DNA of 64,000 bases from an uncultured Eubacteriales bacterium (GCA_900551855.1 URXM01000001.1:125804-189803), one strand, 5' to 3'; positions 9,685 to 28,225 are shown, counted from the stretch's first letter. Notes: generated by a model from the letters alone, not told the origin. A program made the numbers and translations.

Positions 9685-12501
9685 TTATGCATTTGATTTT
9701 TTCTTAATTTTTATGTTTTTAGTTCCAACATATTTGTCTTTTGTTGTTTTGCTTTTTGAACTTGTTGTGCTTGCAGTTTTCTTTGTAGCATTATTTGATG
9801 AAGATTTTGTAGCAGGTGAAGTCTTCTTTGTTGTCGTTTGTTTTGTTGCAATATTTTTTGTATCACTGCTATTTGATGTTTGAATATTGTTTTTGTTTTT
9901 AGACATAACAGTTGGCAAGTCATCTTCAACATCAGCTATTGTTTCTTCTTTTGTAAATTTTGATGAAATCTTTTGCCACAAATCCACTTTTTTCTTTTTT
10001 GATTTTTTGTCTTGAGGTGTTTCAACAACGACCTGTGTTATTTGTCCGTTTGCTGGATATTCTTCAGTGTTGTTGCTTTCAACTCCAGCTTTAGCCAAAG
10101 CTTTTGCTTCTTTTCTATTTAGATACCACTCTTTGAGATAGAAGACTGCGACTATAAGCATAATTGTGCAAAGAAGTAGTGTTGCAAGTGTGACTATAAC
10201 TGGGAAAGTGTAATCTGTGATTGAGAAGAATTGTCCTAATCCCCACAAACAAGAAATAATAAGGATTGCAGAAATTGTTATGCAAATACCTCTAAGCCAG
10301 TTGAGAGGCCAGCAGATCCAAACCAAATTTACAAATCCAACGAATGTCAAAAGCAATGTGCAAAGTGAAGTGTATTCTGTTGGTGACAATGTTGATGTGT
10401 TTTCATTTAATATTAAAACAATAAGAATGTTTATAAACATTAATAAAGAACAAGGGATAGACTTCTTCAAAACTTGAGGAATAAAATCACCTCGAATAAG
10501 TTTGTCGTTTGGTTGGAATGTCAAGATAAACGATGGAAGCCCAATAACAAACATTTCAAGAAGCAACAGTTGTTTTGGTGTGAATGGGTAAGATATTCTC
10601 AAAATCAAAGTTGTTATACAAAGCATAATAGTAAACAAAGTTTTCATCAAGTAAAGCACAGAAGAGTGTTGAACATTATTTACAATCTGTCTTCCTTCTT
10701 TAACGATTGAAGGAAGTGCAGAGAAGTTGCTTTCCATAAGCACAAGATGAGAGATGTTTCTTGCGACTTCGCTTCCATCAGCCATAGCAATAGAGCAGTT
10801 TGCTTCTTTAAGTGCCAAAGTGTCATTTACACCATCACCAGTCATTGCTACAACATTTCCTTGGGTTTTTAATGTTTTTACAATCACATGCTTTTGTTCT
10901 GGGGTGACACGGCCAAAAACAGTAAATTTGTTTGCAATTTGTGCCACTTCTTGAAGGCTCATATTTTCAAGAGATACATATTTGTCACTGTTTTCCACTC
11001 CAACTCTTTTTGCAATTTTTGAAACAGTAAGAGCGTCATCTCCAGAGATTATTTTAATGTCAACATTGTTCTTTTTAAACCAATCAATTGTTTCGATGGC
11101 ATCTTTTCTTATATGGTCTTCAAGGACAAAGAGACAAACAAGTTTTCCTCTCTTGCCGGCTGTTTTTTCTGTGTATGGGTTTGAGTCTTCAACAAGAGAA
11201 ATCACACGCAAGCCTTTTTCCATGTATTGATTCATCAAATTTTTTTGTTGAGCTGTCAAAGCACATTTTATAAAACCAACAGCACCAACATAATATGTTT
11301 TTCCATTGTTCAAAGTGGTAGCACTGTATTTTCTTTGAGAAGAAAATTCTATAACTTCTTTAACAGAAGAATTTAATTCTTTTCCAAACTTCTCCACCAA
11401 AGCAACACTTGTTGCGTTCATTGTTTTTTGATGAGGAAGGATTGTTTTCATTATTTTTTCTATTGACTGCAAAGAGAAGTTGTTTTGTGGCAACACTTCA
11501 ACAACATTCATTGTGCCGTCTGTGATTGTCCCTGTTTTATCAAGACAAAGCACATTTGCTCTTGCAAGCATTTCAATTGAATACAAATTTTTAACCAAGG
11601 TTTTCTTTCTGGCTAGTTTGATAACTCCAACAGAAAGACCAACGGTAATAAGCAGATACATTCCTGCCGGGATCATTCCAGTTAGTGCACCACTCGTGCT
11701 GGTGATTGCCTCTTCAAGTTTTATTCCTGTTACATAAATTTCTTTACACAATGTCAAAACGCCGATAGGAATTAAAATTATGATAATGATCTTAATCAAA
11801 CTGTTTAAGTCTTTAAAAAGGTTTGATGTTTGAGGTTTGAAGTCTTTTGTTCTTTCTGCAACAGTTTGAATGTAGTTATTTTTCCCGACCTTATCAACTC
11901 TTGCATAACATAACCCAGAAACAAGGAAACTTCCTGCTAGCAAATAATCTCCTTCTTTCTTTTTGACAAGATTAGATTCGCCAGTCAACAAACTTTCGTT
12001 TGCTTCAACAGTTCCATCAATAATGATGCAGTCTGCTGGGATTTGATTCCCGTTTTCCAAAATGATAATATCATCCAAAAGCAAATCTTCACCTTTGATT
12101 TCAAGTTGCACGCCCATTCTTATGACTTTAATTTTTGGGGCGGTAACCATAGAAAGTTTTTCAACAGTGTTTTTTGCTTTGATCTCTTGAAAAATTGAAA
12201 TTGCTGTGTTTGCAATTACGACAAACAAAAACAAAAGATCGCTCCAAGCATTTACGCACATCAATGCTATGGCAATCACAAGCCAAATCACATTGAAGAC
12301 TGTAAATATGTTTTTACAGAAAATTTGCAAATAACTGTTTGATGTTTTGATCTTTGTATCATTGACAAGTTTATGCTCTATTCTTTCGTTGATTTGTTCC
12401 TCAGAAAGACCATGTTCTTTATCTGTTTGATAACGAACAATTTGGATGTCTTGCAACACTTGTTTTTTCTTATTATTTTTAGCTTTCTTTATCTTTTTCA
12501 T
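9685..12501 (-). CDS. cation-transporting P-type ATPase with a long Ser/Thr/Lys-rich C-terminal tail
   Basis: LTGES actuator motif, DKTGTIT phosphorylation site, MTGDGVNDTLALKEA hinge, about 10 TM helices. The TM4 motif reads IPAGM rather than PEGL. The last ~150 aa are low-complexity (SSDTKNIATKQTTTKKTSPATKSSSNNATKKTASTTSSKSKTTK). Confidence 0.9.
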   Translation of the reverse strand: MKKIKKAKNNKKKQVLQDIQIVRYQTDKEHGLSEEQINERIEHKLVNDTKIKTSNSYLQIFCKNIFTVFNVIWLVIAIALMCVNAWSDLLFLFVVIANTAISIFQEIKAKNTVEKLSMVTAPKIKVIRMGVQLEIKGEDLLLDDIIILENGNQIPADCIIIDGTVEANESLLTGESNLVKKKEGDYLLAGSFLVSGLCYARVDKVGKNNYIQTVAERTKDFKPQTSNLFKDLNSLIKIIIIILIPIGVLTLCKEIYVTGIKLEEAITSTSGALTGMIPAGMYLLITVGLSVGVIKLARKKTLVKNLYSIEMLARANVLCLDKTGTITDGTMNVVEVLPQNNFSLQSIEKIMKTILPHQKTMNATSVALVEKFGKELNSSVKEVIEFSSQRKYSATTLNNGKTYYVGAVGFIKCALTAQQKNLMNQYMEKGLRVISLVEDSNPYTEKTAGKRGKLVCLFVLEDHIRKDAIETIDWFKKNNVDIKIISGDDALTVSKIAKRVGVENSDKYVSLENMSLQEVAQIANKFTVFGRVTPEQKHVIVKTLKTQGNVVAMTGDGVNDTLALKEANCSIAMADGSEVARNISHLVLMESNFSALPSIVKEGRQIVNNVQHSSVLYLMKTLFTIMLCITTLILRISYPFTPKQLLLLEMFVIGLPSFILTFQPNDKLIRGDFIPQVLKKSIPCSLLMFINILIVLILNENTSTLSPTEYTSLCTLLLTFVGFVNLVWICWPLNWLRGICITISAILIISCLWGLGQFFSITDYTFPVIVTLATLLLCTIMLIVAVFYLKEWYLNRKEAKALAKAGVESNNTEEYPANGQITQVVVETPQDKKSKKKKVDLWQKISSKFTKEETIADVEDDLPTVMSKNKNNIQTSNSSDTKNIATKQTTTKKTSPATKSSSNNATKKTASTTSSKSKTTKDKYVGTKNIKIKKKSNA

Positions 12502-12673
12502 CTTCGTATTTAAGTTTATTAAATTTTTGGCAAAATGTCAAATATAATTGACTTTTTTAAGTAATTATATTATTTTTATTCTATATGATTTATGCAGTTT
12601 GAAACTCGCTTTATGTTTAATTTTGACGATTGATATAATTTAATTTTGTGTATATTTTTGTTTGGGAGGCAAA

Positions 12674-18330: not shown

Positions 18331-19050
18331 ATGTTAACAATAGTTGTAAGAGCAATAATTATTTATTTAGTGGTTTTGTTTTTATACAGGCTTATGGGCA
18401 AAAGGCAACTTGGACAAATGCAACCTTTTGAGCTTGTTTTGACTCTTATTATTGCTGATCTTGCCACAATACCTATGGCTGAAGTTTCTGTCCCTGTTTT
18501 GCACGGGATAGTCCCTTTGTTAACACTTGTTATTGTCCATTTTGTATTGACTTTGCTGTGTAAATTAAGCAATAAATTTTCCTCTTTTTTGAGTGGAAAA
18601 CCTGTGATTGTGATAAATCCAAATGGGATAGATTATAAGGCACTAAAAAATTTAAACATATCTGTTGATGATGTTTTTGAAGCAATAAGAGGGTGCGGGT
18701 ATTTTAAAATAGAGCAAATTCAATATGCAATTATGGAAACCAATGGAAAAATGAGTGTTTTGCCTAAGAGCCTTTATTCTCCAGTTACGATTGGAGATAT
18801 GAAAATAAAAACAGAGAAGAGTGCCATTCCTGTAAACATTATCAATGAAGGAAAAATTGTAAAACAAAATCTTGCAATTGCAAACATAAGCGAAATTGAT
18901 GTAAAAAACATTTTGCAAAAAGCAAATATAAAAAAAGTTAAAGATGTGCTTATTTTGACTGTTGATAAAAACGGTGATGTTTACATACAAAAATTTAATG
19001 ACAAATATCTCACGATGCAACTTAAACAGTTGGGGTCGGTGGAAGAATGA
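18331..19050 (+). CDS. DUF421 (YetF-like) membrane protein
   Basis: The YRLMGKRQLGQMQPFELVLTLIIADLA motif is typical of DUF421. The ATG at 18331 is preferred over the TTG at 18307, but the start is uncertain. Confidence 0.7.
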   Translation: MLTIVVRAIIIYLVVLFLYRLMGKRQLGQMQPFELVLTLIIADLATIPMAEVSVPVLHGIVPLLTLVIVHFVLTLLCKLSNKFSSFLSGKPVIVINPNGIDYKALKNLNISVDDVFEAIRGCGYFKIEQIQYAIMETNGKMSVLPKSLYSPVTIGDMKIKTEKSAIPVNIINEGKIVKQNLAIANISEIDVKNILQKANIKKVKDVLILTVDKNGDVYIQKFNDKYLTMQLKQLGSVEE

Positions 19051-19448
19051 CTAAGTATATGTGGTTTAAATTGGTGTCTGTTTTTGTGATTGTTGGGACT
19101 CTGATTGCTATTTGTGTGGTAGAGGACAGACTGATAATAAATTCTTTTAAAGAAATTCAAAATTATTGCTATGAAATTGAAGAAGTGGCAAAAAACAATG
19201 GCATTGTTGATGGAGAAGTGGCAAGCTTGGTTGACAATTTGGAATATTCTTGGACAGTCAACGAAAGCAAAATGTGTTTTATGGTCAATCATAAAGCTAT
19301 CGAACAAATGGGTGTGGAAATAGTGAGACTAAAAACATACATAGATGAAGATGAGCCTATTGAATTTTTTGTTTCTTTGGAACTTATAAAACATTATCTT
19401 GAAACTTTTCAACATTTCATGGGGGCAAGTTTTCACAACATTTTATAA
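19047..19448 (+). CDS. DUF4363-like small membrane-anchored protein
   Basis: ATGA overlap with the DUF421 gene. N-terminal TM helix followed by a helical domain. The DUF421/DUF4363 pairing is common in Clostridia. Assignment is from context and architecture only. Confidence 0.5.
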   Translation: MTKYMWFKLVSVFVIVGTLIAICVVEDRLIINSFKEIQNYCYEIEEVAKNNGIVDGEVASLVDNLEYSWTVNESKMCFMVNHKAIEQMGVEIVRLKTYIDEDEPIEFFVSLELIKHYLETFQHFMGASFHNIL

Positions 19449-19451
19449 AAC

Positions 19452-19499
19452 AAAAAAAAATAGTGAGTTTTAGTCAAGCAATTTTGAAACTAGCGGTAT
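19452..19499. repeat. left terminal inverted repeat (attL-like)
   Basis: aaaaaaaaatagtg (19452-19465) and gcaattttgaaactag (19478-19493) reappear in inverted orientation at 27093-27106 and 27068-27085. Confidence 0.55.
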
Positions 19500-19511
19500 T
19501 TTTAGAGAAAG

Positions 19512-19553
19512 AAAAGAGTATAAATTAAGTTTTATCTTAAAATATACTCTTTT
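19512..19553. terminator. bidirectional terminator just inside the element's left end
   Basis: Extended hairpin AAAAGAGTATAaaTTAAGttttatCTTAAaaTATACTCTTTT with T-rich sequence on both strands. It lies downstream of the recombinase gene (minus) and of read-through from the host DUF4363 gene (plus). Confidence 0.7.
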
Positions 19554-19645
19554 TCTTTTGTTTTATTATTGCTCTAGAGAAAATAGAATAAGTTTAATAT
19601 GGGGAACAAATATTTACATATATTTTTTGTATTAAGTTTGTATAG

Positions 19646-21148
19646 TTATATTACCACATACACATCATAAGATTTGGAGTAAATTCTTGTTGTGCCACCT
19701 TTGAATGTGCGTTGGGTGGTGTGGGTTTCGGTGAAAAGTTTTTTAGATGCTTGCTCGGTGGTTTGTGGCTGGTTTATAGAGTAATTAAGATAGATTTCAA
19801 TTTTCTCGTCATACACCCTAATCTGCTTTATGAAAAGTTCTATGGCTTTATTTGGGCATTTTTTCATTGTGTATTTAAAGAAATTTTGAATATCTTCTTT
19901 TGTTAGATCAAAGCGTTCTTTTGATTGCTCTACAACTAACTTTTCTTGCAAATCTTTCTTTTGTTTTTCTAGTTCTTCAAGTCGAGATTTTGTTGTGTCT
20001 GTTAATATCCCTTTTTCTATTGCTATCATAATATTTGAAATAGCGGTATTGGTTCTTTGCAATTCATTTTTTAATGCATTAAGAGAGTTGTTATTTCCAA
20101 CTCTCTTTTTATGAAGTTCATAGATTTTGGTAGAAAGTTCTTCTAAATTTTCTGGAATATTGAATTGAGATATTAAGAATTTATCAATCACGCTTTCAAT
20201 AAAGGTTTTATCAATGATTCCAACTAAACAATTTCTTTTCTTGGTAGTTATGCATTTGTAATATCGTATAGTTTGTCCATTAGAAGAAATTGCAGACACA
20301 GGATACATTTTTCTATCACAACACCCACAATAAATTCTATCTTTCAACCTAAATATTTCGTGATTGTCTTTTCGGCAACCATATCGGTTTGCGTCAAGTC
20401 TTTTCTTTACATTTTGGAATAGTTCTTGTGATATGATAGGTGGATAGATTTTATCGTAAACTTTACCATTTAATCTATAAACACCTGTGTAAAATTCATT
20501 CTTTAAATAGTGCCTTATGGTTTCTGGAATAAACTTTTTACCTTTGTTGGTTATATTTTCTTTTTCAAAATCTCTACAAATTTGAAGTATTGTTTTACCA
20601 CTCGCATAATCTTCAAATACTCGTTTAACAATACTTGCTTCATCTTCATTTATTTTTAGCATTTTGTTTTCTTTTACATATCCAAATGGAACTGAGCCTA
20701 TACAATGTCCTTTCATTCGTGATTCGTGAAGTCCACGACTTACTTTTTGTGCTAATTCTTCGCTGAAATATTGGTTCATACCTTCAAGCAGGCTTTCAAG
20801 TAAAACTCCTTCTGGTGTTTCAGGTATGTTTTCCATAGCGGACAATAGTTTTATTCCATTATCTTTTAGGTGCTTTCTATGAATTGCTGATTCATATTTG
20901 TTTCTTGCAAATCTATCAAGTTTATAGACTAACACATAGTCCCACTTTTTGTTATTGCTGTCCTTTAACATTCTTTGAAAGGCTTCTCTCTCGTCCGTTG
21001 TGCCAGAGATTGCTCGGTCTATGTATGAATCTACGATAACTATATCATTCCGTTTAGCAAAATCTTGGCAAACATGAACTTGACCTTCGATTGATTGCTC
21101 TGTTTGGTTGTTGCTACTGTATCTCGCATATATTACTGCTGTTTTCAC
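19646..21148 (-). CDS. large serine recombinase (integrase)
   Basis: Resolvase-type catalytic domain AVIYARYSSNNQTEQSIEGQ...LVYKLDRFARN, recombinase domain, Cys-rich zinc ribbon (YCGCCDRKMYPV...YYKC) and a C-terminal coiled coil. Start set at GTG 21148, 7 nt after AAAGGAG. The upstream part of the track ORF is non-protein-like. Confidence 0.9.
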   Translation of the reverse strand: MKTAVIYARYSSNNQTEQSIEGQVHVCQDFAKRNDIVIVDSYIDRAISGTTDEREAFQRMLKDSNNKKWDYVLVYKLDRFARNKYESAIHRKHLKDNGIKLLSAMENIPETPEGVLLESLLEGMNQYFSEELAQKVSRGLHESRMKGHCIGSVPFGYVKENKMLKINEDEASIVKRVFEDYASGKTILQICRDFEKENITNKGKKFIPETIRHYLKNEFYTGVYRLNGKVYDKIYPPIISQELFQNVKKRLDANRYGCRKDNHEIFRLKDRIYCGCCDRKMYPVSAISSNGQTIRYYKCITTKKRNCLVGIIDKTFIESVIDKFLISQFNIPENLEELSTKIYELHKKRVGNNNSLNALKNELQRTNTAISNIMIAIEKGILTDTTKSRLEELEKQKKDLQEKLVVEQSKERFDLTKEDIQNFFKYTMKKCPNKAIELFIKQIRVYDEKIEIYLNYSINQPQTTEQASKKLFTETHTTQRTFKGGTTRIYSKSYDVYVVI

Positions 21149-21240
21149 TTCTTTTTCTCCTTTTATTCTATTTTTCTGTCTTTCGACAGGGGCGAAACAA
21201 ACGGAAACGAATTGTTGTTTTTTAATTTTAAATTTTAGAA

Positions 21241-21286
21241 CTATTGTCAAAGGTTGTGAAACAATGCACTTTACCTTTGACAATAG
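21241..21286. promoter_or_regulatory. 14-bp perfect inverted repeat in the rep-recombinase intergenic region
   Basis: ctattgtcaaaggt (21241-21254) pairs with acctttgacaatag (21273-21286) across an 18-nt loop. The right arm overlaps aatagtgagtttt (21282-21294), which is identical to 19459-19471 in the attL-like repeat. Confidence 0.6.
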
Positions 21287-21318
21287 TGAGTTTTCGTTTA
21301 AACTTCGCACCCGAAAGA

Positions 21319-22185
21319 CTAATTACTCTTTGGCATTTCACTGATAACTTCTGGACTAACTTTACCCATAACAACACCTTCGTCAATGCAAAGAAAGTCA
21401 TCAAAGAGAAGTAGTTTTCTATCTTCCTGTCCTATGGTGCAAACGATATCACTTTCTAAAATGTCCGAGATAAAGTATGTTTGCAGATGCTTTGAGTAGA
21501 CAACTCTTTCGCCAGTCTTTCTAATATATTTGAGAATATATGAAATTGCTTGATAGACAAGAGAACTATGTTCAATCTCTTTAAAATCGTTTCTACCAAA
21601 TCTATCTAAAAAGAAAGTGTTTTGGTATGTTATCTGCATTTTATGAGTCTTTGTAGAATAGTCTTTGGTTTCAATAATCTCTCCAATCATTTTCGGTATC
21701 ACAAAAATTCCGTGAAAGTGGAGTCTATTATTTATAGGGCTTCGTTCCCAAACTCCAATATATTTCCAGCCTTTGCGGTTAGATAGATGTCTTAAACAAT
21801 TTAGTAGTTTCTTTTTAAATTCTTCTTCGCTTAATTTTTTACTATCATAGGTAAATGTGCAAAAGTGCGTCCATTGTTGTAAATTCACTTTTCTATATAG
21901 CCTTGTAAGTCTAACAATTCGATTTCGCTTTTCCTTATTTAAAACTTTCTTAACTATCTCTTTTGACTTCTCAATATCTTTAACTTCTTTATCTATTTCT
22001 TCAACTGCTTCTTTAATTTTTTCACTCTTAACTTTATCTTTCTTACTTTCTAAAATTTCCTTAACTTTTTCTTCGTTTTTATCTTTCTTAACTTTTCTTT
22101 TCTTACTTTTCCACGGTTGCGTGGTATGAGGAATAGCGATGTAATGACTACCGTCAAAATATACTTTACTTTTTGGATAGTGCAT
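21319..22185 (-). CDS. HUH-superfamily rolling-circle Rep / non-canonical relaxase-like protein
   Basis: Motif I FCTFTYD, motif II (HUH) RLHFHGIF and motif III YILKYIRK (catalytic Tyr) occur in the canonical order. There is a Lys/Glu-rich N-terminal region. RBS GGGAGG lies 6 nt upstream. Confidence 0.65.
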   Translation of the reverse strand: MHYPKSKVYFDGSHYIAIPHTTQPWKSKKRKVKKDKNEEKVKEILESKKDKVKSEKIKEAVEEIDKEVKDIEKSKEIVKKVLNKEKRNRIVRLTRLYRKVNLQQWTHFCTFTYDSKKLSEEEFKKKLLNCLRHLSNRKGWKYIGVWERSPINNRLHFHGIFVIPKMIGEIIETKDYSTKTHKMQITYQNTFFLDRFGRNDFKEIEHSSLVYQAISYILKYIRKTGERVVYSKHLQTYFISDILESDIVCTIGQEDRKLLLFDDFLCIDEGVVMGKVSPEVISEMPKSN

Positions 22186-22288
22186 TTTGTTCCTCCCTTG
22201 CTTTTGTGATTAGATTTAAAATTTCCAAGAAAAAATCTTCTTTAAGAAGTGATAAATCTAACACCTTTTCAACTTTTAATGTTCGCAT
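22166..22288 (-). CDS. possible 40-aa protein overlapping the rep start
   Basis: ATG 22288 is preceded by AAAGGAG. The product is MRTLKVEKVLDLSLLKEDFFLEILNLITKAREEQNALSKK. It overlaps rep by 20 nt, suggesting coupling. No family recognised. Confidence 0.35.
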   Translation of the reverse strand: MRTLKVEKVLDLSLLKEDFFLEILNLITKAREEQNALSKK

Positions 22289-22329
22289 TTCTTTAACTCC
22301 TTTTTTGTAAAATTTGGAATTAAAAAAGA

Positions 22330-22351
22330 CATAGAAAAATATTTTTCTATG
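22330..22351 (-). promoter_or_regulatory. perfect 22-bp palindrome (operator or attenuator-terminator) upstream of the small-ORF/rep operon
   Basis: catagaaaaatatttttctatg is its own reverse complement. On the minus strand it is followed by TCTTTTTTAATT, about 40 nt before ATG 22288. Confidence 0.5.
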
Positions 22352-22623
22352 CCCATAAAATGCAACCACTGACTCTTAAATTTTGGCTCAGAGCATACCA
22401 ATAAACTAACTTCTCGGCTTGCCATTTTGCGTTGTCTAATTTAATTTCAAGAAGAGAATAGCATAAATGATTTAAAAATGTAAGGAACTAAACTAGTACA
22501 AAACTAGTACTTTTTCCCAACAAAACCCAAACAAACTTGTAGTTTTTGGTAAAAAGTTGCACGATTTTTGCTATTCTTCTCTAAATACAGCCACAAAAAA
22601 GGGTGAAAGTTAAGGCAATATTC

Positions 22624-22656
22624 AAAAAATATTCCACTTTTTATCGTGGAATATTT
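22624..22656 (-). terminator. rho-independent terminator of the sigma-like gene
   Basis: On the minus strand: AATATTCCAC gataaaaa GTGGAATATTTTTT, immediately after the stop at 22663. Confidence 0.7.
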
Positions 22657-22662
22657 GAAATA

Positions 22663-23295
22663 TTACATATAATACATTGCATATCTATCTTTGAATTTTC
22701 TTCTTCGTCTGTAAACTCTATCTACGCTTATGCCTAAAAATTCTGCTATAAGTTTAGGTTCTACTCCGTTGTAATAGAATTCAAATACTTGATATTCAAG
22801 TTTGTTCTGTATGATTTTTGAAAGTATTTCTTTAACTTTTGTATAGTCTGGTTTTTCGTTTAATATTGGTCTATCGTCTATGAGTTCAAAACATTCATTT
22901 TCATCTACAATGTTGTTATGAAATTTTAATTCTTTTCGCAAGTACACTTGTAATACTCTAATGCAAGCATTTTTAAGATTGTCTATCTTGCCAGATTTAG
23001 ACTTTGAGTTTTTGCAAAGTTCACCAAGTCTGTGCCCTATGAATTTGCAAAGAAACAAACTTGCTTCTTGGACTAAATCGTATGCGTCTGAATAGTTATC
23101 TAGTTTCTTGTGATAGCAAATATCTTGTTTCAACTGACTTTGCAATCTCTCAACTTTTGGTGTTGCACTGTATGCATATTTCTTAATGCCTTTCAATGCA
23201 CATAGAGCGAAACATTGAGATAACTTTTCAATGTTTTCTAAGGTAATAACCGTGTTTTCATCTAAAATACCTTTTTTCTTTTTTACTTCTTTCAT
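22663..23295 (-). CDS. sigma-70-family (region 2 + region 4) transcription factor of the element
   Basis: A region-2-like DAYDLVQEASLFLCKF and a C-terminal region-4 HTH (YQVFEFYYNGVEPKLIAEFLGISVDRVYRRRRKFKDR). RBS AAGGAG lies 6 nt upstream. Confidence 0.55.
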   Translation of the reverse strand: MKEVKKKKGILDENTVITLENIEKLSQCFALCALKGIKKYAYSATPKVERLQSQLKQDICYHKKLDNYSDAYDLVQEASLFLCKFIGHRLGELCKNSKSKSGKIDNLKNACIRVLQVYLRKELKFHNNIVDENECFELIDDRPILNEKPDYTKVKEILSKIIQNKLEYQVFEFYYNGVEPKLIAEFLGISVDRVYRRRRKFKDRYAMYYM

Positions 23296-23540
23296 ATATA
23301 ACTCCTTTTATTTGCCTTTTGGCACAAACAAAAAAGAGCATAGTTTGACTGAAAATTTAAAACATTAGAATCTTATATACAACAAGTCAAGGAAGAAGAA
23401 ATATATATTTTATGCAAAGAAAAAAGACTAAGGTAAAACCTTAATCTTAAAAGAAAACTAAAATATATATTTCCCTTGAATTGTTGTGAGAACTATGCCA
23501 CAACCACCAGCCAAAAGGCGAAGAAAAGGAGAAAATACAA

Positions 23541-23622
23541 AAAACGGCATCGTAAAAAAATGAGAAGGCGTTTGGCAAAGAGGGTTTACCCCTTGCCAGC
23601 CTCTCATTTTAGATGCCGTTTT
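23541..23622. terminator. 82-nt multi-segment hairpin (bidirectional terminator-like)
   Basis: Pairings counted by hand: 23541-23551 with 23612-23622 (11 bp), 23557-23565 with 23602-23610 (9 bp), GGC/GCC, TGGCAA/TTGCCA, GGG/CCC, with loop TTTA. On the minus strand it is followed by TTTTTTGTATTTTCTCC. Confidence 0.6.
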
Positions 23623-23643
23623 GTTTTGCGGGAGAATATTTTA

Positions 23644-23669
23644 TTAAATTGCAATATTTTAAATTGCAA
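23644..23669. repeat. iteron-like direct repeat
   Basis: ttaaattgcaa occurs at 23644-23654 and again at 23659-23669, a 15-bp period. Confidence 0.6.
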
Positions 23670-23721
23670 GTTTTTGTTATTTTTAATTAAAAAATTTTTT
23701 GTTTTGTCAGTTTTTGCGTGT

Positions 23722-23777
23722 GTGTGCTTGTCTTTCGGTGGAGCGAAGCGACACCGACTTGTATATGGCAAGCACAC
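23722..23777. other. GC-rich nested hairpin in AT-rich non-coding DNA
   Basis: Outer stem GTGTGCTTG (23722-23730) pairs with CAAGCACAC (23769-23777). Inner stem TCGGTG (23735-23740) pairs with CACCGA (23752-23757). It is conspicuously GC-rich against the local background. Confidence 0.5.
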
Positions 23778-23796
23778 GTCTAAATGCCAATATTTG

Positions 23797-23958
23797 TTAC
23801 AATTGTTGTATATCAAAAAATTCAAATTGGCTGTGTTTAATTTTATTTTGAGCCCAATTAACAACAAAATTTCTATCACCGCTGATTGTTTCATAAAAAG
23901 CAGGCACTCCTGACCTAAATGAATTTTCTGTTATATAATAATTAATTTTCCATTTCAT
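23797..23958 (-). CDS. possible 53-aa protein
   Basis: My own translation is MKWKINYYITENSFRSGVPAFYETISGDRNFVVNWAQNKIKHSQFEFFDIQQL. Composition is protein-like but the RBS is weak. It lies between promoter 24189-24216 and the 23541-23622 terminator. Confidence 0.3.
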   Translation of the reverse strand: MKWKINYYITENSFRSGVPAFYETISGDRNFVVNWAQNKIKHSQFEFFDIQQL

Positions 23959-24008
23959 AAACATTTAAACCTTTTAAACTTTTTCTTCCCATTTGCTACA
24001 TGCCGAGT

Positions 24009-24158
24009 TCATACAGCCTTGGTTTCCATTCCCTCTAGCATGAATTTTACAAACATGTGTAGAAAGCGACTCCCATTGAACATTGCTTCCCATCCTTTTT
24101 GATGGATTTCCAAAATACTTGCATGTGCAACATACTCTTTGTCTTGCTGGTGTTGAAT
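24009..24158 (-). CDS. possible 49-aa protein with a non-canonical (ATT) start
   Basis: A strong SD AAAAAGGAGG (GGAGG = 24173-24169) follows the promoter, but no ATG, GTG or TTG lies 5-12 nt downstream. The in-frame ATT at 24158 sits 10 nt after the SD. The product would be (M)QHQQDKEYVAHASILEIHQKGWEAMFNGSRFLHMFVKFMLEGMETKAV. Confidence 0.25.
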   Translation of the reverse strand: MQHQQDKEYVAHASILEIHQKGWEAMFNGSRFLHMFVKFMLEGMETKAV

Positions 24159-24188
24159 TCGTATACTACCTCCTTTTTCAACAATAGA

Positions 24189-24216
24189 ATTATAACATAA
24201 AAATTTTAAGTTACAA
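24189..24216 (-). promoter_or_regulatory. extended -10 promoter (minus strand)
   Basis: On the minus strand: TTGTAA (24216-24211), 16-nt spacer, TGTTATAAT (-10 at 24194-24189). Confidence 0.55.
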
Positions 24217-24291
24217 AGAAAAAGCAGTATTTTAGTGTCCATATTTTGGGACATATATTTTGATATAATCTATTTGCAAAAAGGAGAAATA

Positions 24292-24876
24292 ATGAAAGAT
24301 AAAACTTACAATTACAATTTAATTACGCGTGAAAAGATTATCACAGAAAAAGATTTAAGTAATGGTAATTTAATTTTATTAGCAAGTAGACCTTGTATTG
24401 GGAAGACCAAAACTTGTTGTTATTTATTTGAATATTATTCAAAGAAATATAGTTGTCTATATTTTGATTTGTCTGGTAGTTCAAGCTCATATTTTCTTGG
24501 CAACAAAGAACAAAATGGATTAATATTTGATTTTACGCCTTCTGTTGAGATGATTAAAAAAATACAAAATGGAATAAAGTATGATAATTTGAAAATTGTT
24601 TTTATTGATTATTCGCAATTGTTAACAAACACAGACAATTGGTTTTTAAATATGCTGTTGGAATTATGCTCCAACCATAAGATAGTGATAATAATCACAA
24701 GCCAATTATCAAGAAAGATTGAAAAACGCAGACAACATTTGCCAAAATATAAAGATTTAAGAAATATTAAAAACATTTTCTATGCTTGTCGAAAATGCGT
24801 TGTGATAACTTGTCCATATGCTTACGGCGAAAGCGAAAAATACGAATTAGTCTATTTACTTTATAAAAGCAATTGA
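24292..24876 (+). CDS. minimal DnaB C-terminal-domain-like (RecA-fold) ATPase, 194 aa
   Basis: LILLASRPCIGKTKT matches the DnaB Walker A (ARPsMGKT). VFIDYSQLL matches Walker B (IDYLQLM). IIITSQLSRKIEKRRQHLPKYKDLRN matches SQLsRavEqR..krP.lsDLR. There is no N-terminal helicase domain. ATG 24292 is preceded by AAAGGAG, with TGATATAAT at 24261-24269. Confidence 0.65.
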   Translation: MKDKTYNYNLITREKIITEKDLSNGNLILLASRPCIGKTKTCCYLFEYYSKKYSCLYFDLSGSSSSYFLGNKEQNGLIFDFTPSVEMIKKIQNGIKYDNLKIVFIDYSQLLTNTDNWFLNMLLELCSNHKIVIIITSQLSRKIEKRRQHLPKYKDLRNIKNIFYACRKCVVITCPYAYGESEKYELVYLLYKSN

Positions 24877-24935
24877 AAATATGCCGATTGTTTGCTTTTT
24901 ATTGACTTTTATGATACACTTAATTTGAGGTTTTT

Positions 24936-25922
24936 ATGGCTACTGATACAAACAAAAAATTGTCAATTATATACATATATGAAATATTAAAAGAATATAG
25001 TGATGAAAATCACTTACTTAAACAACAAGATATAATCAAGTTGATTAAGCAAATATATGATATGGATTGTGAGAGAAAATCGATCGGAAATAACATTGAT
25101 TTTCTCATTGATTTAGGTTTTGATATCATTAAAGTTCCACATAAAGGTTGCTATCTTGGAGAAAGAGTGTTGGAGCCAAGCGAAGTATCGTTTATAGTTG
25201 ACGCATTGTTTTCAAGTAAATCAATTAGTGGCAAGCAAGCAAAAGAGTTGTCAACTAAATTGTCAAATTTGCTTAGTAAATATCAACGGAAAAAATACAA
25301 TTACATATTTAAAGCTGATGAGGTTAACCGAACAAGCAATAAAGAACTTTTTTATAACATTGAAATCATTCAAGAAGCTATTGAAAATAATAAAAAAATT
25401 TCATTTAATTATATAAGACCGCATTACGAAAAGGATAATCTACAAAAGGTTTATATTGTCAATCCATATTTTTTAGTGAATAATCAAGGTAGATATTATT
25501 TAATTTGCAATTTTGATTATTACAAAGAAATTGGTAATTATAAAGTTGATTTTATTAAAAATATCAAAATTTTAGATGAAGAACGAAAACCTATTACAAA
25601 CATTAAAGGTTTTGAAAGGGGAATTGATATTTCTAAATACATAAATGAACATATATATGTGTTTGGAGATAAAACAATAAATGCTACTATAAAACTTGCT
25701 GACGACAATTCAATAACTTATGTTATGGAATGGTTTGGTAAAAACGCTAAAATATATAAAAAGAACAACACAACTTATGCTGATATTGTAAGTAGTGAAA
25801 AAGCTCTTGTCTATTGGTGCTTGCAGTATGGTGAAAGTGTGGAACTAACTGAACCAACAGAAACTAGGAACAAAATTAAAGAAAAAGTCAAAATGATTTG
25901 TGAAAAATATGGAGAATTATAA
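24936..25922 (+). CDS. wHTH-WYL-WCX transcriptional regulator (BrxR/CapW/PafBC-like architecture)
   Basis: N-terminal wHTH (LSIIYIYEILKEYSDENHLLKQQDIIKLI). WYL domain (ISFNYIRP...VYIVNPYFLVNNQGRYYLICN...YKVDFIKNIKIL). C-terminal extension domain (ATIKLADDNSITYVMEWFG...LVYWCLQYGESVELTEP). Confidence 0.85.
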   Translation: MATDTNKKLSIIYIYEILKEYSDENHLLKQQDIIKLIKQIYDMDCERKSIGNNIDFLIDLGFDIIKVPHKGCYLGERVLEPSEVSFIVDALFSSKSISGKQAKELSTKLSNLLSKYQRKKYNYIFKADEVNRTSNKELFYNIEIIQEAIENNKKISFNYIRPHYEKDNLQKVYIVNPYFLVNNQGRYYLICNFDYYKEIGNYKVDFIKNIKILDEERKPITNIKGFERGIDISKYINEHIYVFGDKTINATIKLADDNSITYVMEWFGKNAKIYKKNNTTYADIVSSEKALVYWCLQYGESVELTEPTETRNKIKEKVKMICEKYGEL

Positions 25923-25926
25923 AATT

Positions 25927-27000
25927 ATGAGATATTTAGACAATAATATAAATCTATTGCAAGAGAAACTCGATAAAGTTAAAATTACCAAGCCACAAAT
26001 CAGTTTTCTTCAAGTTATCAATAGATCTATGCGTGAAGTGGTCATCTCAAAATACCTGGCTTTTTTGCTAGACGAAAGAAATACAACATTTAAAGTTCTT
26101 GAAAAAATTTTAACAAAAACTCATGAAGGAGTTGAAAAATATAATGTAAATTTTAAAGAAAGCCAACTTGAAGGGGTATATACCGAGTTCCAAATTTCAA
26201 AAAACGACCGAATAGATATATTTATTAAATATTCCAATTTTTGGATTGTAATTGAAAATAAAATTTTTACTGGAGAGTCAAAAGAAAACCAAACAGTAAA
26301 ATATAAAGAAAAACTAACTAAAATAAATACAAGGAATTTGCCTATATTGTATATATATTTAAAGCCTAAAGCGAACCCCTCAAAGCCAAGTGAAAGTGCT
26401 TTTAAAGTATTAACATATGAAGATTTATATTCTATCTTAGATGCCATAAAAGAAAAAGATTTATGCCAAATAGAAAATTATAAGTTTTTACTTGATTTTA
26501 AAATTCATACAAAGGAGATATTGATGAAAATGTTTAATCTTGATACAGACGAAATGAAGTTTTATCTTGATAATCAAAATAAATTGCAAAATGTAATAAA
26601 TGCATACAATAAAAATTGTAAGCTTGTTAAAAATGCTTTGGTTGATGCTTTTAAAGATAGATTTGGATATGAGTTTGAAATTCATGAAACAAACAGATAC
26701 ATACAAGTTTATAAAAAAAATTGGGATGATGGAACACATTTTGAATTGTTGTTTAAAGATGGTGAGAATTTTGAAAATATTATTTCTGAAACCGATAGAA
26801 CTTTCTTCTTCTGTCTACATACAGAAGGAAAATCTCGTAACAAGTATCCTAAAATTAAAGAAAAAAGCCAAGAAGAAAAATTTAAATTTAATAGCAATGA
26901 GAATATAATGTCATCTATAAATAGTATTGTAGATAAATTTGATAACTTATTGATTAAAAAAGATACGGAAATTATTGATTCGAATTTTACTAAAAACTAA
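25927..27000 (+). CDS. PD-(D/E)XK-superfamily nuclease
   Basis: Core motifs appear in order: helix Glu (SMREVVISKYLAFLLDE), D in RIDIFI, E-x-K in WIVIENKIF, then ENQTVKY. The start is ambiguous: GTG 25900 and ATG 25909 lie inside the WYL ORF, and ATG 25927 lies 5 nt after its stop. Every option implies an operon with the WYL gene. Confidence 0.7.
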   Translation: MRYLDNNINLLQEKLDKVKITKPQISFLQVINRSMREVVISKYLAFLLDERNTTFKVLEKILTKTHEGVEKYNVNFKESQLEGVYTEFQISKNDRIDIFIKYSNFWIVIENKIFTGESKENQTVKYKEKLTKINTRNLPILYIYLKPKANPSKPSESAFKVLTYEDLYSILDAIKEKDLCQIENYKFLLDFKIHTKEILMKMFNLDTDEMKFYLDNQNKLQNVINAYNKNCKLVKNALVDAFKDRFGYEFEIHETNRYIQVYKKNWDDGTHFELLFKDGENFENIISETDRTFFFCLHTEGKSRNKYPKIKEKSQEEKFKFNSNENIMSSINSIVDKFDNLLIKKDTEIIDSNFTKN

Positions 27001-27020
27001 ATTTTGATATATTTAAAAAC

Positions 27021-27058
27021 AAAAAGGAACCTAACTATTTTGTGAAGTTCCTTTTCTT
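27021..27058. terminator. rho-independent terminator of the cargo operon
   Basis: Stem aaaaggaac (27022-27030) pairs with gttcctttt (27047-27055), followed by a T-run. Confidence 0.75.
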
Positions 27059-27060
27059 AA

Positions 27061-27106
27061 TTTTATACTAGTTTCAAAAGTTTGCACCCTTGCACTATCT
27101 TTTTTT
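27061..27106. repeat. right terminal inverted repeat (attR-like)
   Basis: The reverse complement reads aaaaaaagatagtg-caagggt-gcaaacttttgaaactag-tat. It matches 19452-19499 in two blocks: a 12-nt exact block, and a 14-nt block with 1 mismatch. Confidence 0.55.
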
Positions 27107-27115
27107 ATTTTTATA

Positions 27116-28225
27116 TTACCAAACTTTGTCTCGTTTTTTGTAGAACACGATTAAAGTGATTACACTTGCTAAAATCAAAACAGAACAAATAATCAATAAG
27201 ATTAGCCAAACATAAGATTTTGCTTGTTGTTTCATAGTTGAAAGGTTTTGAACAGACAAGTTTAGTTTGTCGCTTCCGTCAGAATTTTTTATTGTGCAAT
27301 AAACTGTCCATTTGCCTTCTATATCATTTGAATCGAAAACAAAACTCGTACCTGTGACTTTGTCTTCTGGCAATGACTGCCAAATAACTTTTGAATTTGC
27401 ATAATTTATATTTTCATCTTTAATTTTTTGAGTTAAGACATAACTTATATTTGTTTTATCATTTCCAACAACATTCCATTGTATGTATTTTGGATTTACA
27501 TATTTGTAAGTGTCATTTGAAAGATATAAATTGAAAATATTCATAAGTTTGTTTGAGCTTGAGATAGAATACAAAATGTTTATTTCTGAAACAGGAATTG
27601 AGTCTATGTCATCAGGCAAAATGGCGATGTAAATGTCTCCAACAGATCTTTTTATCTCAACATTGTCTTCTGTGTAAGTGTAAACAAAATCAAATTTGTA
27701 AAGTCCAAAATCGTTTCCTGTGCATCGTGTTGAAGTTTCTGTTATGTTTGCATCATCATCGATATAATAATAAAAATCAAACTGTGAAAAGGAATTGTTT
27801 GAAATTGTGCCTTGATATAAGATTTCAGGTTCAATTACACCGAGTGAAGTCTGTAAATCATCGGTTTGTATGTTTGTCAACAGAAATTGGTAATAACTGA
27901 AAGTTTTTGTGCTGTCTTTTATAGTGGAAGTGAAACGAAATCTAAAATATTCAAGTTCGCTCCATTTAAAGCAATAATATGTTATGCTTTCTCCAACAAC
28001 TGTGGTGACTTGTCTTTCATCAAGGGGCAACGCTGTTTGAGTTCTTGAATTTGCTTCAATTGACATTGAAAAGTTGTCATCTTGAATGTTTTTTGAGACA
28101 AAAGAATCTGCATAAGCAATATTGTTTAAAGGCAGAGTAAAAAATCCTACACCAAAGATAAGTGCAATCAAAAAAAATGCAAATATTTTATATATAAGAT
28201 TTTGTCTGATTTTTGTTTTCATCAA
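27116..28225 (-). CDS. type-I membrane / surface protein of unknown function
   Basis: N-terminal signal sequence (IFAFFLIALIFGVGFFTLPLNNIAYADS), a ~300-aa beta-rich ectodomain, and a C-terminal TM anchor (YVWLILLIICSVLILASVITLIVFYKKRDK). Confidence 0.6.
   Translation of the reverse strand: MMKTKIRQNLIYKIFAFFLIALIFGVGFFTLPLNNIAYADSFVSKNIQDDNFSMSIEANSRTQTALPLDERQVTTVVGESITYYCFKWSELEYFRFRFTSTIKDSTKTFSYYQFLLTNIQTDDLQTSLGVIEPEILYQGTISNNSFSQFDFYYYIDDDANITETSTRCTGNDFGLYKFDFVYTYTEDNVEIKRSVGDIYIAILPDDIDSIPVSEINILYSISSSNKLMNIFNLYLSNDTYKYVNPKYIQWNVVGNDKTNISYVLTQKIKDENINYANSKVIWQSLPEDKVTGTSFVFDSNDIEGKWTVYCTIKNSDGSDKLNLSVQNLSTMKQQAKSYVWLILLIICSVLILASVITLIVFYKKRDKVW

Follow-up and report, generated by a model that had tools for sequence, protein, structure and literature searches.

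How did a DNA element of about 7.6 kb come to lie between two convergent host genes with nested inverted repeats at its ends, and what determined the choice of this site? The question is raised by a 64,000-nucleotide stretch from an uncultured Eubacteriales bacterium (GCA_900551855.1 URXM01000001.1:125804-189803; this whole stretch is the window in what follows). An earlier note, made from the sequence alone, had placed an element bounded by imperfect inverted repeats at positions 19452-27106 and had assigned the outer repeat arms to host attB half-sites and the inner arms to attP half-sites of a large serine recombinase (LSR). Analysis of the locus and of related loci revealed that an element with a complete LSR gene and a symmetric attP occupies positions 19472-27089, and that it was inserted conservatively at a TT dinucleotide in the loop of a predicted terminator hairpin. 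We favour, with a probability of roughly 0.85, the reading that the element was placed there by its own LSR and that its family targets many different sites by means of A/T-tracts and a core dinucleotide.

Empty sites and exact boundaries of the element

Empty sites were located by exact look-up of the protein encoded by the left neighbour of the element, a DUF4363 gene, in public assemblies. The identical protein is present on 18 contigs. Among the ten of these listed (L001-L010), L001 (SRR585755) contains the element and shows 100% identity to the window across 20.4 kb, and the remaining nine (L002-L010), from the same species, are without it and retain the outer arms only. This is the arrangement expected in the earlier note, with the DUF4363 gene directly convergent with the gene whose stop lies at 27116 and the host sequence joined at the repeats, and it bears out the assignment of the outer arms to the host and of the inner arms to the element. 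In the empty contigs, the DUF4363 gene is separated by 43-48 nt from the convergent gene encoding a 368-aa protein, of which L009 has a 3′ remnant only. The flanks of these contigs are 98-99% identical to the window (BLAST), with the exception of the right flank of L006 (253 nt, 91.7%). At the insertion position, the empty sites read AAAAAAAATAGTGAGTT-TT-GCACTATCTTTTTTT, the outer arms being joined as ...ATAGTGAGTT-TT-GCACTATC..., and two alleles of the intergenic sequence occur, AAAAAAAATAGTGAGTTTTGCACTATCTTTTTTT and AAAAAAGGATAGTGAGTTTACATTATCCTTTT, the second of which has compensatory changes in the stem.

In six empty contigs (L002, L003, L004, L007, L008, and L010), the BLAST alignment of the left flank ends at 19471 and that of the right flank starts at 27090, and the two alignments overlap in the query by exactly 2 nt, the dinucleotide TT. 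Therefore, the insert corresponds to positions 19472-27089 (7,618 bp) with the crossover TT at 19470-19471 and 27090-27091, inside both of the crossover windows proposed before (19466-19477 and 27086-27092). Comparison of the empty and occupied sites revealed that zero host bases were lost or gained at insertion. The variant-allele contigs L005 and L006 showed breaks at 19470 and 27103, and in L009, which also has this allele, the left flank alone was aligned, with its end at 19470. All sequence strings quoted in the earlier note are present, and the repeats begin 4 nt after the DUF4363 stop (19448) and end 10 nt before the stop of the convergent gene (27116), as it had said. The span of 19452-27106 does contain the repeats, but it includes the host half-sites, whereas the inserted DNA is 19472-27089 plus one TT.

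At 525-760 of L009, the DUF4363 gene and an intact terminator precede no more than the last 130 nt or so of the 368-aa gene, after which lies a type I restriction enzyme R-subunit gene. This represents either a separate rearrangement at the same locus or an assembly chimera.

The predicted terminator at the insertion site

The empty site folds on both strands into an A-run, a 6-8-bp stem with a 6-7-nt loop, and a U-run, with the TT located in the loop. The fold z-scores were -2.1 and -4.1 for L002 and -4.8 for L005, which has the second allele. By fold and position, the empty site is a predicted bidirectional intrinsic terminator common to the two convergent genes, and the real sequence has the shape that had been anticipated from rejoining the outer arms. 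The species contains two alleles of this terminator, ATAGTG/CACTAT (L002/L004) and GGATAGTG/CATTATCC (L005/L006/L009), and the compensatory stem changes between them support a functional hairpin. Only the first allele type is found occupied.

Each end of the element contains a hairpin of its own, and the sequence of the left one (19507-19559) is also present in L077 and L083. The earlier proposal of replacement terminators at the element ends agrees with the folding of both hairpins on both strands and with their U-rich tails, and a role of these candidate structures in the termination of host and element transcripts is plausible. The presence of bidirectional hairpins at both ends suggests selection for insulated host transcription units.

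Origin of the nested inverted repeats

The inner arms share an exact inverted 12-mer, TTTTGAAACTAG, at 19482-19493 (plus strand) and 27068-27079 (minus strand), which a repeat finder extends to 32 nt with 72% complementarity. The outer arms, aaaaaaaaatagtg and aaaaaaagatagtg, agree in 13 of their 14 nt. When the two intergenic stretches (197 and 115 nt) were shuffled 3,000 times with dinucleotides preserved, 2.9% of the trials gave an inverted exact match of 12 nt or more, or about one in 35, which is about three times commoner than the one in 100 estimated before. At this chance level, the inverted repeat alone is only suggestive, and the decisive evidence is external, consisting of the empty sites and the conservation across the family. 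The additional gcaa noticed in both inner arms is indeed present, but it is 2 nt out of register and not conserved in the family. With one mismatch allowed, the 12-mer has no further copy in the window and is therefore not a repetitive extragenic palindromic (REP)-like repeat here, which was an outcome named in the earlier note as fatal to its proposal.

When the element ends are rejoined, they produce a 46-bp attP, CTAGTTTCAAAA-GTTTGCACCC-TT-AGTCAAGCAA-TTTTGAAACTAG, with the junction string ...CTAGTTTCAAAAGTTTGCACCC-TT-AGTCAAGCAATTTTGAAACTAG... and the layout 12 + 10 + TT + 10 + 12, in which both perfect 12-mers are exactly 10 nt from the TT. The terminal 10 nt of the two ends are not inverted copies of each other (AGTCAAGCAA and GGGTGCAAAC). 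With the inner 10 nt not inverted and the 12-mers positioned 10 nt inside, this is the layout of an LSR attP and not that of transposon ends. The terminator hairpin is split between the outer halves of attL and attR, and therefore the junctions look like nested inverted repeats. Thus, the nested repeats have two origins, with the outer pair representing the split terminator and the inner pair the attP arms.

Target sites of related elements

A genome scan with the recombinase produced a family set of 65 loci, in which an automatic rule took as the element end the first arm-like 11-mer met downstream of a recombinase homologue. The recombinase-side arm is conserved (...CTAGTTTCAAAA TTGCTTGACT AA), and the host sequence past the core differs at every locus. 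Forty-seven related recombinases are accompanied by 47 distinct host flanks, 46 of which have a run of at least four T (T4+) starting 4-11 nt from the core. Both ends pooled gave 65 distinct flanks, with T at positions +10 to +13 in 56-63 of them and no conservation at +1 to +6. A T4+ run starting within 4-11 nt was present in 64 of the 65 flanks, compared to 11% at matched random dinucleotides (binomial P = 1.6e-59).

For 11 elements with both ends (including L019, whose far end was located by flank complementarity), joining the flanks yields hairpins of the form A-run/stem/loop/stem/T-run that have the core in their loop and all differ in stem sequence. Ten of these 11 rebuilt sites contain, no more than 9 nt from the core, a perfect stem of 5 bp or longer. 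Among control sites matching AAAA-N9-core-N9-TTTT, such stems were present in 32% of intergenic and 11% of coding sites. Where flanking open reading frames (ORFs) were called, a gene end was located 13-78 nt from at least one junction (9 of 11 elements), and some sites lie between convergent neighbouring genes, others between co-directional ones. The end pairings produced by the first automatic script for L020, L041, and L033 (4,646 bp) were rejected, as their rebuilt sites did not fold.

Recombinases with at least 88% identity to that of the window are associated with 16 distinct attB flanks and those with at least 90% identity with 13, where the count compares attB sequences rather than target-gene clusters and some of the recombinases are partial. 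Five recombinases that are 98.8-100% identical over their available C-terminal portions (95-255 residues) have identical P′ arms and five unrelated flanks. Judged by sequence, the recombinase classifies as multi-targeting according to Durrant et al. (PMC10083194), for whom this means one 90%-identity cluster with more than three unrelated sites. The occurrence of near-identical recombinases with the same attP arm in many unrelated terminators indicates that it is not a one-site integrase. The location of relatives in the loops of dozens of unrelated terminators suggests homing to terminator architecture and not to one fixed sequence. The attP carries A/T-tracts at +/-11-14, which are conserved across the family, and the presence of the same tracts in attP and attB suggests a shared half-site determinant, with GAAACTAG marking attP.

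No empty sites for other family members were found among the fetched loci, and for this reason their cores were derived from the spacing. With the fixed 10-nt spacing, the apparent cores are AT in L026, L033, L068, and L021, TA in L038, L039, and L041, and GC in L036. Such palindromic core dinucleotides in sub-families would remove the orientation control of a serine recombinase.

Proposed mechanism and alternative explanations

We propose that the element was inserted by its own LSR through conservative recombination between the 46-bp attP and a host attB, which would be the loop of the bidirectional intrinsic terminator common to the DUF4363 and 368-aa genes, with strand exchange at the central TT. 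The split hairpin would have contributed its A-run and 5′ stem to the outer part of attL and its 3′ stem and T-run to the outer part of attR, and the hairpins inside each element end would replace the lost terminator. Across the family, attB would have no conserved stem sequence, but a core matching the element core and a T-tract about 10-13 nt away on each side. Each recombinase subunit would then probably read an A/T-tract and tolerate nearly any sequence between the tract and the core. Terminator hairpins are likely to be both the commonest good sites and the least harmful ones, and insertion in the loop should be harmless once the element brings its own hairpins. The excised circle may replicate by a rolling-circle mode, as suggested by the HUH Rep gene and the adjoining structured spacer. 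A stronger version of this proposal is that the clade has evolved to read the bidirectional-terminator architecture itself (a dyad between an A-tract and a T-tract, with a loop dinucleotide matching the element core), perhaps through DNA shape or an extruded hairpin and not through a defined attB sequence; this version is advanced tentatively, and on balance we do not adopt it.

Several points weigh against the proposed mechanism. Empty sites are available for the element of the window only, and the junctions and cores of the others were deduced from the arms and a constant spacing of 10 nt. Among the near-identical recombinases, several are represented by a C-terminal fragment at the end of a contig. 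Most of the loci belong to metagenome-assembled genomes (MAGs) of different species, and use of several sites by one enzyme within a single genome was not directly observed. The constant position of the T might reflect the geometry of terminators and not a recognition element, and selection against insertions elsewhere could be responsible, partly or wholly, for the terminator pattern. Excision, a directionality factor, and circle replication are deduced, and no excised circle, attP junction read, or directionality factor was identified. In addition, a consensus terminator scan made no call at either end-proximal hairpin, which leaves the replacement terminators as predictions; we attribute this to their A+T-rich stems, as the scan needs at least three G-C pairs.

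Selection is also central to the alternative that survives best, in which a match to the core in A+T-rich DNA suffices for an integrase of relaxed specificity, and insertions in genes, promoters, and leaders are subsequently lost. This is compatible with the G+C content of the genomes (about 30%) and with the abundance of AAAA-N9-core-N9-TTTT control sites (374 distinct sites in about 1.1 Mb), and a multi-targeting LSR with 21 sites, a TT core, and A/T-enriched target ends was interpreted in this way by Durrant et al. (PMC10083194). It does not readily account for the stems of at least 5 bp in 10 of 11 observed sites versus 32% of the A4/T4-framed intergenic controls, for the nearly invariant T at +10 to +13 in 65 flanks, or for the presence of the same family-conserved tracts in attP. 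Since selection could operate within intergenic DNA too, these observations weaken this explanation without removing it, and we consider it rather unlikely.

Structure-specific targeting, in which the recombinase or an accessory protein senses an extruded hairpin or cruciform or a transcription-engaged terminator, would explain why the stems are complementary in 10 of 11 rebuilt sites with no common sequence and why the T-run is found at distances of 3 to 11 nt from the core. The element would also make single-stranded DNA if its Rep is active, and IS1272/TnSha1 provides a precedent for hairpin targeting without sequence specificity (PMC4923244). This mechanism nevertheless appears improbable, because some sites have their core displaced from the centre of the dyad, by as much as about 1.5 nt, because attP has the form of an ordinary duplex-type site, and because known serine recombinases are established to act on duplex sites bound by dimers.

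A classical single-site integrase, with one cognate attB for each element that happens to be a terminator and with sites differing along with co-diverged recombinases, would agree with the site specificity of most LSRs (83-88% of clusters are predicted to be site-specific; Durrant et al., PMC10083194) and with the single site in this species among the contigs listed. We regard it as highly improbable given the five unrelated flanks of the 98.8-100% identical recombinases (C-terminal 95-255 residues) with identical P′ arms, and given the 16 distinct flanks at 88% identity or above, where the inner arms and cores are constant while the stems differ wholly. Finally, a cut-and-paste transposon that has terminal inverted repeats and duplicates a 2-bp TT target would formally give the same picture, with inverted repeats close to either end and a TT at each junction, but it can practically be dismissed because the LSR is the sole recombinase, with no DDE or other transposase detected in the family scans, and the inverted repeat begins 10 nt inside each end, the terminal 10 nt not being inverted copies.

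Genes of the element

The features of the locus are presented in Table 1.

Table 1. Features of the element and its insertion site, by position in the window
Feature	Position	Strand	Evidence or remarks
Host gene, DUF4363 family, left neighbour, reads toward the insertion site	19047..19448	+	Pfam PF14276, E = 2e-9
attL host half-site (B): A-run, 5′ stem ATAGTG and half of the original terminator loop	19452..19469		Kept in all empty-site contigs
Crossover dinucleotide TT, attL	19470..19471		2-nt BLAST overlap, six empty contigs
attL element half-site (P′): inner 10 nt AGTCAAGCAA and outer 12-mer TTTTGAAACTAG	19472..19493		Same arm downstream of recombinase homologues at about 50 loci
Element-internal hairpin, U-rich tails on both strands; candidate terminator for the recombinase gene and DUF4363 read-through	19507..19559		Fold z -3.3 (+), -3.95 (-)
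Large serine recombinase, 500 aa	19646..21148	-	Pfam Resolvase PF00239 1e-28, Recombinase PF07508 7e-20, Zn_ribbon_recom PF13408 2e-6
Structured spacer between Rep and recombinase genes: 15-bp hairpin, 8-bp closing helix, promoter-like TTGACA	21149..21318	-	14-member alignment
HUH rolling-circle Rep (predicted)	21319..22185	-	Pfam PF23343 REP_ORF2-G2P, 42 bits vs cutoff 27.8
67-aa backbone ORF	22166..22369	-	Conserved beside Rep across the family; no family match
210-aa backbone protein, C-terminal helix-turn-helix, weak sigma-70 region-4 likeness	22663..23295	-	PHROG 1740 sigma factor 5e-5; TIGR02937 5e-4, below cutoff
Small ORF, 145 aa, variable region (23476..24254, with the next)	23476-23913	+	No family match; matches four related loci only (L011, L027, L050, L080)
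Small ORF, 81 aa, variable region	24009-24254	-	No family match; no match in related loci
194-aa RecA/DnaB-C-like P-loop protein, cargo or accessory	24292..24876	+	Pfam DnaB_C 2e-13, partial match; gene called in L001
WYL-domain regulator, cargo	24936..25922	+	Pfam WYL 1e-11, WCX 1e-3; PADLOC WYL 2e-27
PD-(D/E)XK_4 nuclease-family protein, cargo; matches defence candidate PDC-S26	25927..27000	+	Pfam PDDEXK_4 9e-18; PADLOC PDC-S26 2e-13
Element-internal hairpin, A-run and U-run flanks; candidate bidirectional terminator for the cargo operon and 368-aa-gene read-through	27022..27055		Fold z -1.9 (+), -4.35 (-)
attR element half-site (P): outer 12-mer CTAGTTTCAAAA and inner 10 nt GTTTGCACCC	27068..27089		
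Crossover dinucleotide TT, attR	27090..27091		BLAST overlap
attR host half-site (B′): 3′ stem CACTAT and T-run of the original terminator	27092..27106		Empty-site contigs
Host gene, 368-aa protein without family match, right neighbour, convergent with the DUF4363 gene	27116..28222	-	

The recombinase gene starts with GTG at 21148 preceded by GGAG, and its homologues, of which a search gave 4,736, also have 500 aa. The protein contains the N-terminal catalytic motif VIYARYSSNNQ with the serine nucleophile and matches PHROG 95 (integrase, 2e-99), with CcrB and XisF as distant kin. Its PF07508 and PF13408 matches are above their cutoffs, but no match to DUF4368 was detected at E <= 0.01. The domain set (Resolvase, Recombinase, and Zn_ribbon_recom), the length, and the att-site layout identify the protein as an LSR, in agreement with the earlier assignment, with a predicted activity in attP x attB recombination. 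Exact look-up of the recombinase in public assemblies retrieved the source contig only, and that of the right neighbour, entered as a 369-aa protein, gave no match on account of the start codon chosen. A partial and marginal match of this protein to the major head protein family phrog_10 (E = 0.0056) was taken as spurious.

In the alignment of 14 family members, 11 of the 25 predicted pairs of the Rep-recombinase spacer show compensatory changes. The TTGACA box is located in the 3′ arm, and the equivalent spacer region is found in L011-L048 at about 9815-10010. The spacer matches no Rfam family, the sole Rfam match in the window being a tRNA elsewhere. Possible roles of this spacer are those of a rolling-circle origin, an operator, and a leader controlling the recombinase; its covarying conserved hairpin region adjoins rep, and no nick site was identified in it. 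The Rep motifs FCTFTYD, HFH, and YxxKY are invariant in an alignment of seven family members, and motif 1 together with the HUH and tyrosine motifs marks the protein as a predicted HUH rolling-circle initiator. The 210-aa helix-turn-helix protein is probably a regulator, and a recombination directionality factor function of the 67-aa ORF would be a guess only. Sequence searches of PDB with Rep and the 210-aa protein gave nothing useful.

The genes of the left half, from the recombinase to the 210-aa ORF, are on the minus strand, and the right half reads the opposite way except for the 81-aa ORF. The G+C content is lower in the cargo half (23300-27000, about 25-28%) than in the backbone half (about 29-36%), which fits exchangeable cargo of different origin. 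Scans of the element proteins against Pfam, NCBIfam, and PHROGs recognised no relaxase, and no oriT was recognised. The HUH Rep might serve as a relaxase for mobilisation; to our knowledge, PF23343 (ORF2/G2P) is not counted among the relaxase families. No DDE or other transposase was detected among the element proteins by Pfam, PHROG, and further family scans.

Distribution and cargo of the family

The 65 loci are mostly from uncultured gut Clostridia, 'Candidatus Caccovivens', and misnamed 'Christensenella sp. UBA' MAGs. The conserved backbone consists of the recombinase, Rep, the 67-aa ORF, and the 210-aa ORF, with Rep accompanying the recombinase down to about 40% identity, and complete elements span 4.0-10.6 kb. 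The genes outside the backbone are exchangeable cargo. In relatives, they include type I restriction-modification (L026, L033), DpnII-type restriction-modification with methylases (L038, with colinear ORFs in L019 that were not scanned), an ABC transporter (L016), ankyrin and lyase proteins (L017), DegV (L048), and an APH-like kinase (L028). Numerous contigs end within the recombinase gene, as would be typical of elements that are repeated or vary between strains. Two different family members are present on separate contigs of one MAG in three cases (L013 and L038, L021 and L069, L029 and L075).

Positions 11756-13468 of L076 contain a 1.7-kb element in a terminator loop with both canonical arms and no recombinase or Rep. 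It holds one 403-aa ORF without a Pfam match and looks like a non-autonomous derivative that could be mobilised in trans. In L083, the far junction, about 7.8 kb from the recombinase-side end and on the reverse strand, was found through host-flank complementarity (AAAAAAGGAGTCT...) with no canonical arm next to it, and this locus may be a composite or rearranged element.

A metagenome scan with a 24-nt arm pattern found eight loci only, and a viral scan with the same pattern found none. IMG/VR contained no relatives of the LSR, Rep, or the arm, and PLSDB no relative of Rep. No virion, packaging, or hijacking genes were detected in the element, its PHROG matches other than phrog_10 being to families of integration, replication, regulation, or unknown function. 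A prophage or phage satellite was therefore rejected on the basis of this gene content and the IMG/VR result. The sole match in the phage and plasmid collections is L085 (MT835493.1, 'Bacteriophage sp.', human faeces), an unverified 57-kb phage-labelled scaffold with a Rep homologue of 56% identity at 11602-12624 and no recombinase or arms nearby.

Comparison with known systems

At the level of the single element, the present work describes a fully delimited serine-integrase island with verified attB, attP, attL, and attR, which is useful but ordinary, and the family pattern has more weight. If the enzyme itself selects terminator loops, it would represent a natural integrase with a generic, ubiquitous, and tolerant target instead of a unique sequence. 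Terminator loops would then be built-in, genome-wide, harmless landing sites for small cargo or defence islands replicating by a rolling-circle mode, which would explain the spread of small restriction-modification, defence, and accessory islands among gut Clostridia without gene damage. The family would also be a tractable system for the relaxation of serine-integrase half-site recognition to a tract and a 2-nt core, and the landing-site logic may be portable to genome engineering in A+T-rich bacteria.

Class C bacterial group II introns are RNA-based retroelements that home to intrinsic terminators whatever the stem sequence and insert just after the stem. They resemble the present family in terminator homing, but differ in chemistry and in the insertion position. 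The enzyme of IS1272/TnSha1 is a DDE transposase. This staphylococcal system (IS1182 family) also inserts in terminator hairpins without conservation of primary sequence, but it cuts the stem and deletes part of the target (PMC4923244), whereas the insertion described here is conservative, in the loop, and without loss of a nucleotide.

The integrases TP901-1, phiC31, Bxb1, and A118 and the CcrA/B proteins of SCCmec share with the present recombinase the three-domain architecture, an imperfect-palindrome attP of about 46 bp, and a 2-nt core, and in PDB its catalytic domain is closest to the TP901-1 integrase and a clostridial conjugative-transposon recombinase. In contrast to these phage and island integrases, which have one defined attB that is usually in a gene, the present recombinase uses many attB of unrelated sequence, and its element has no phage genes and no relatives in IMG/VR. 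Integrative and mobilisable elements of Firmicutes with serine recombinases are similar in size (4-10.6 kb) and in the combination of an integration module, an HUH protein, and cargo without conjugation genes, but no relaxase or oriT is recognised here and Rep belongs to the ORF2/G2P family (PF23343).

TnpX of Tn4451 is a multi-targeting large serine recombinase. The multi-targeting LSRs reported by Durrant et al. in 2022 (PMC10083194), for example Cp36, are like the present family in having a cluster of about 90% identity in many attB sites, a TT core, A/T-enriched target ends, and a conservative 2-nt crossover. They differ in DUF4368, which is present in 63% of that clade and was not detected here, and in that the targets described here are specifically terminator-hairpin loops. 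Their report makes no mention of terminators, hairpins, or palindromes, and the family arm sequence is absent from its text supplementary files (PMC10083194). No paper describing serine integrases that target terminator loops was found, within a limited literature coverage that is not proof of absence. The element joins the known serine-integrase islands, and terminator-loop targeting across its family is a new form of multi-targeting serine integration.

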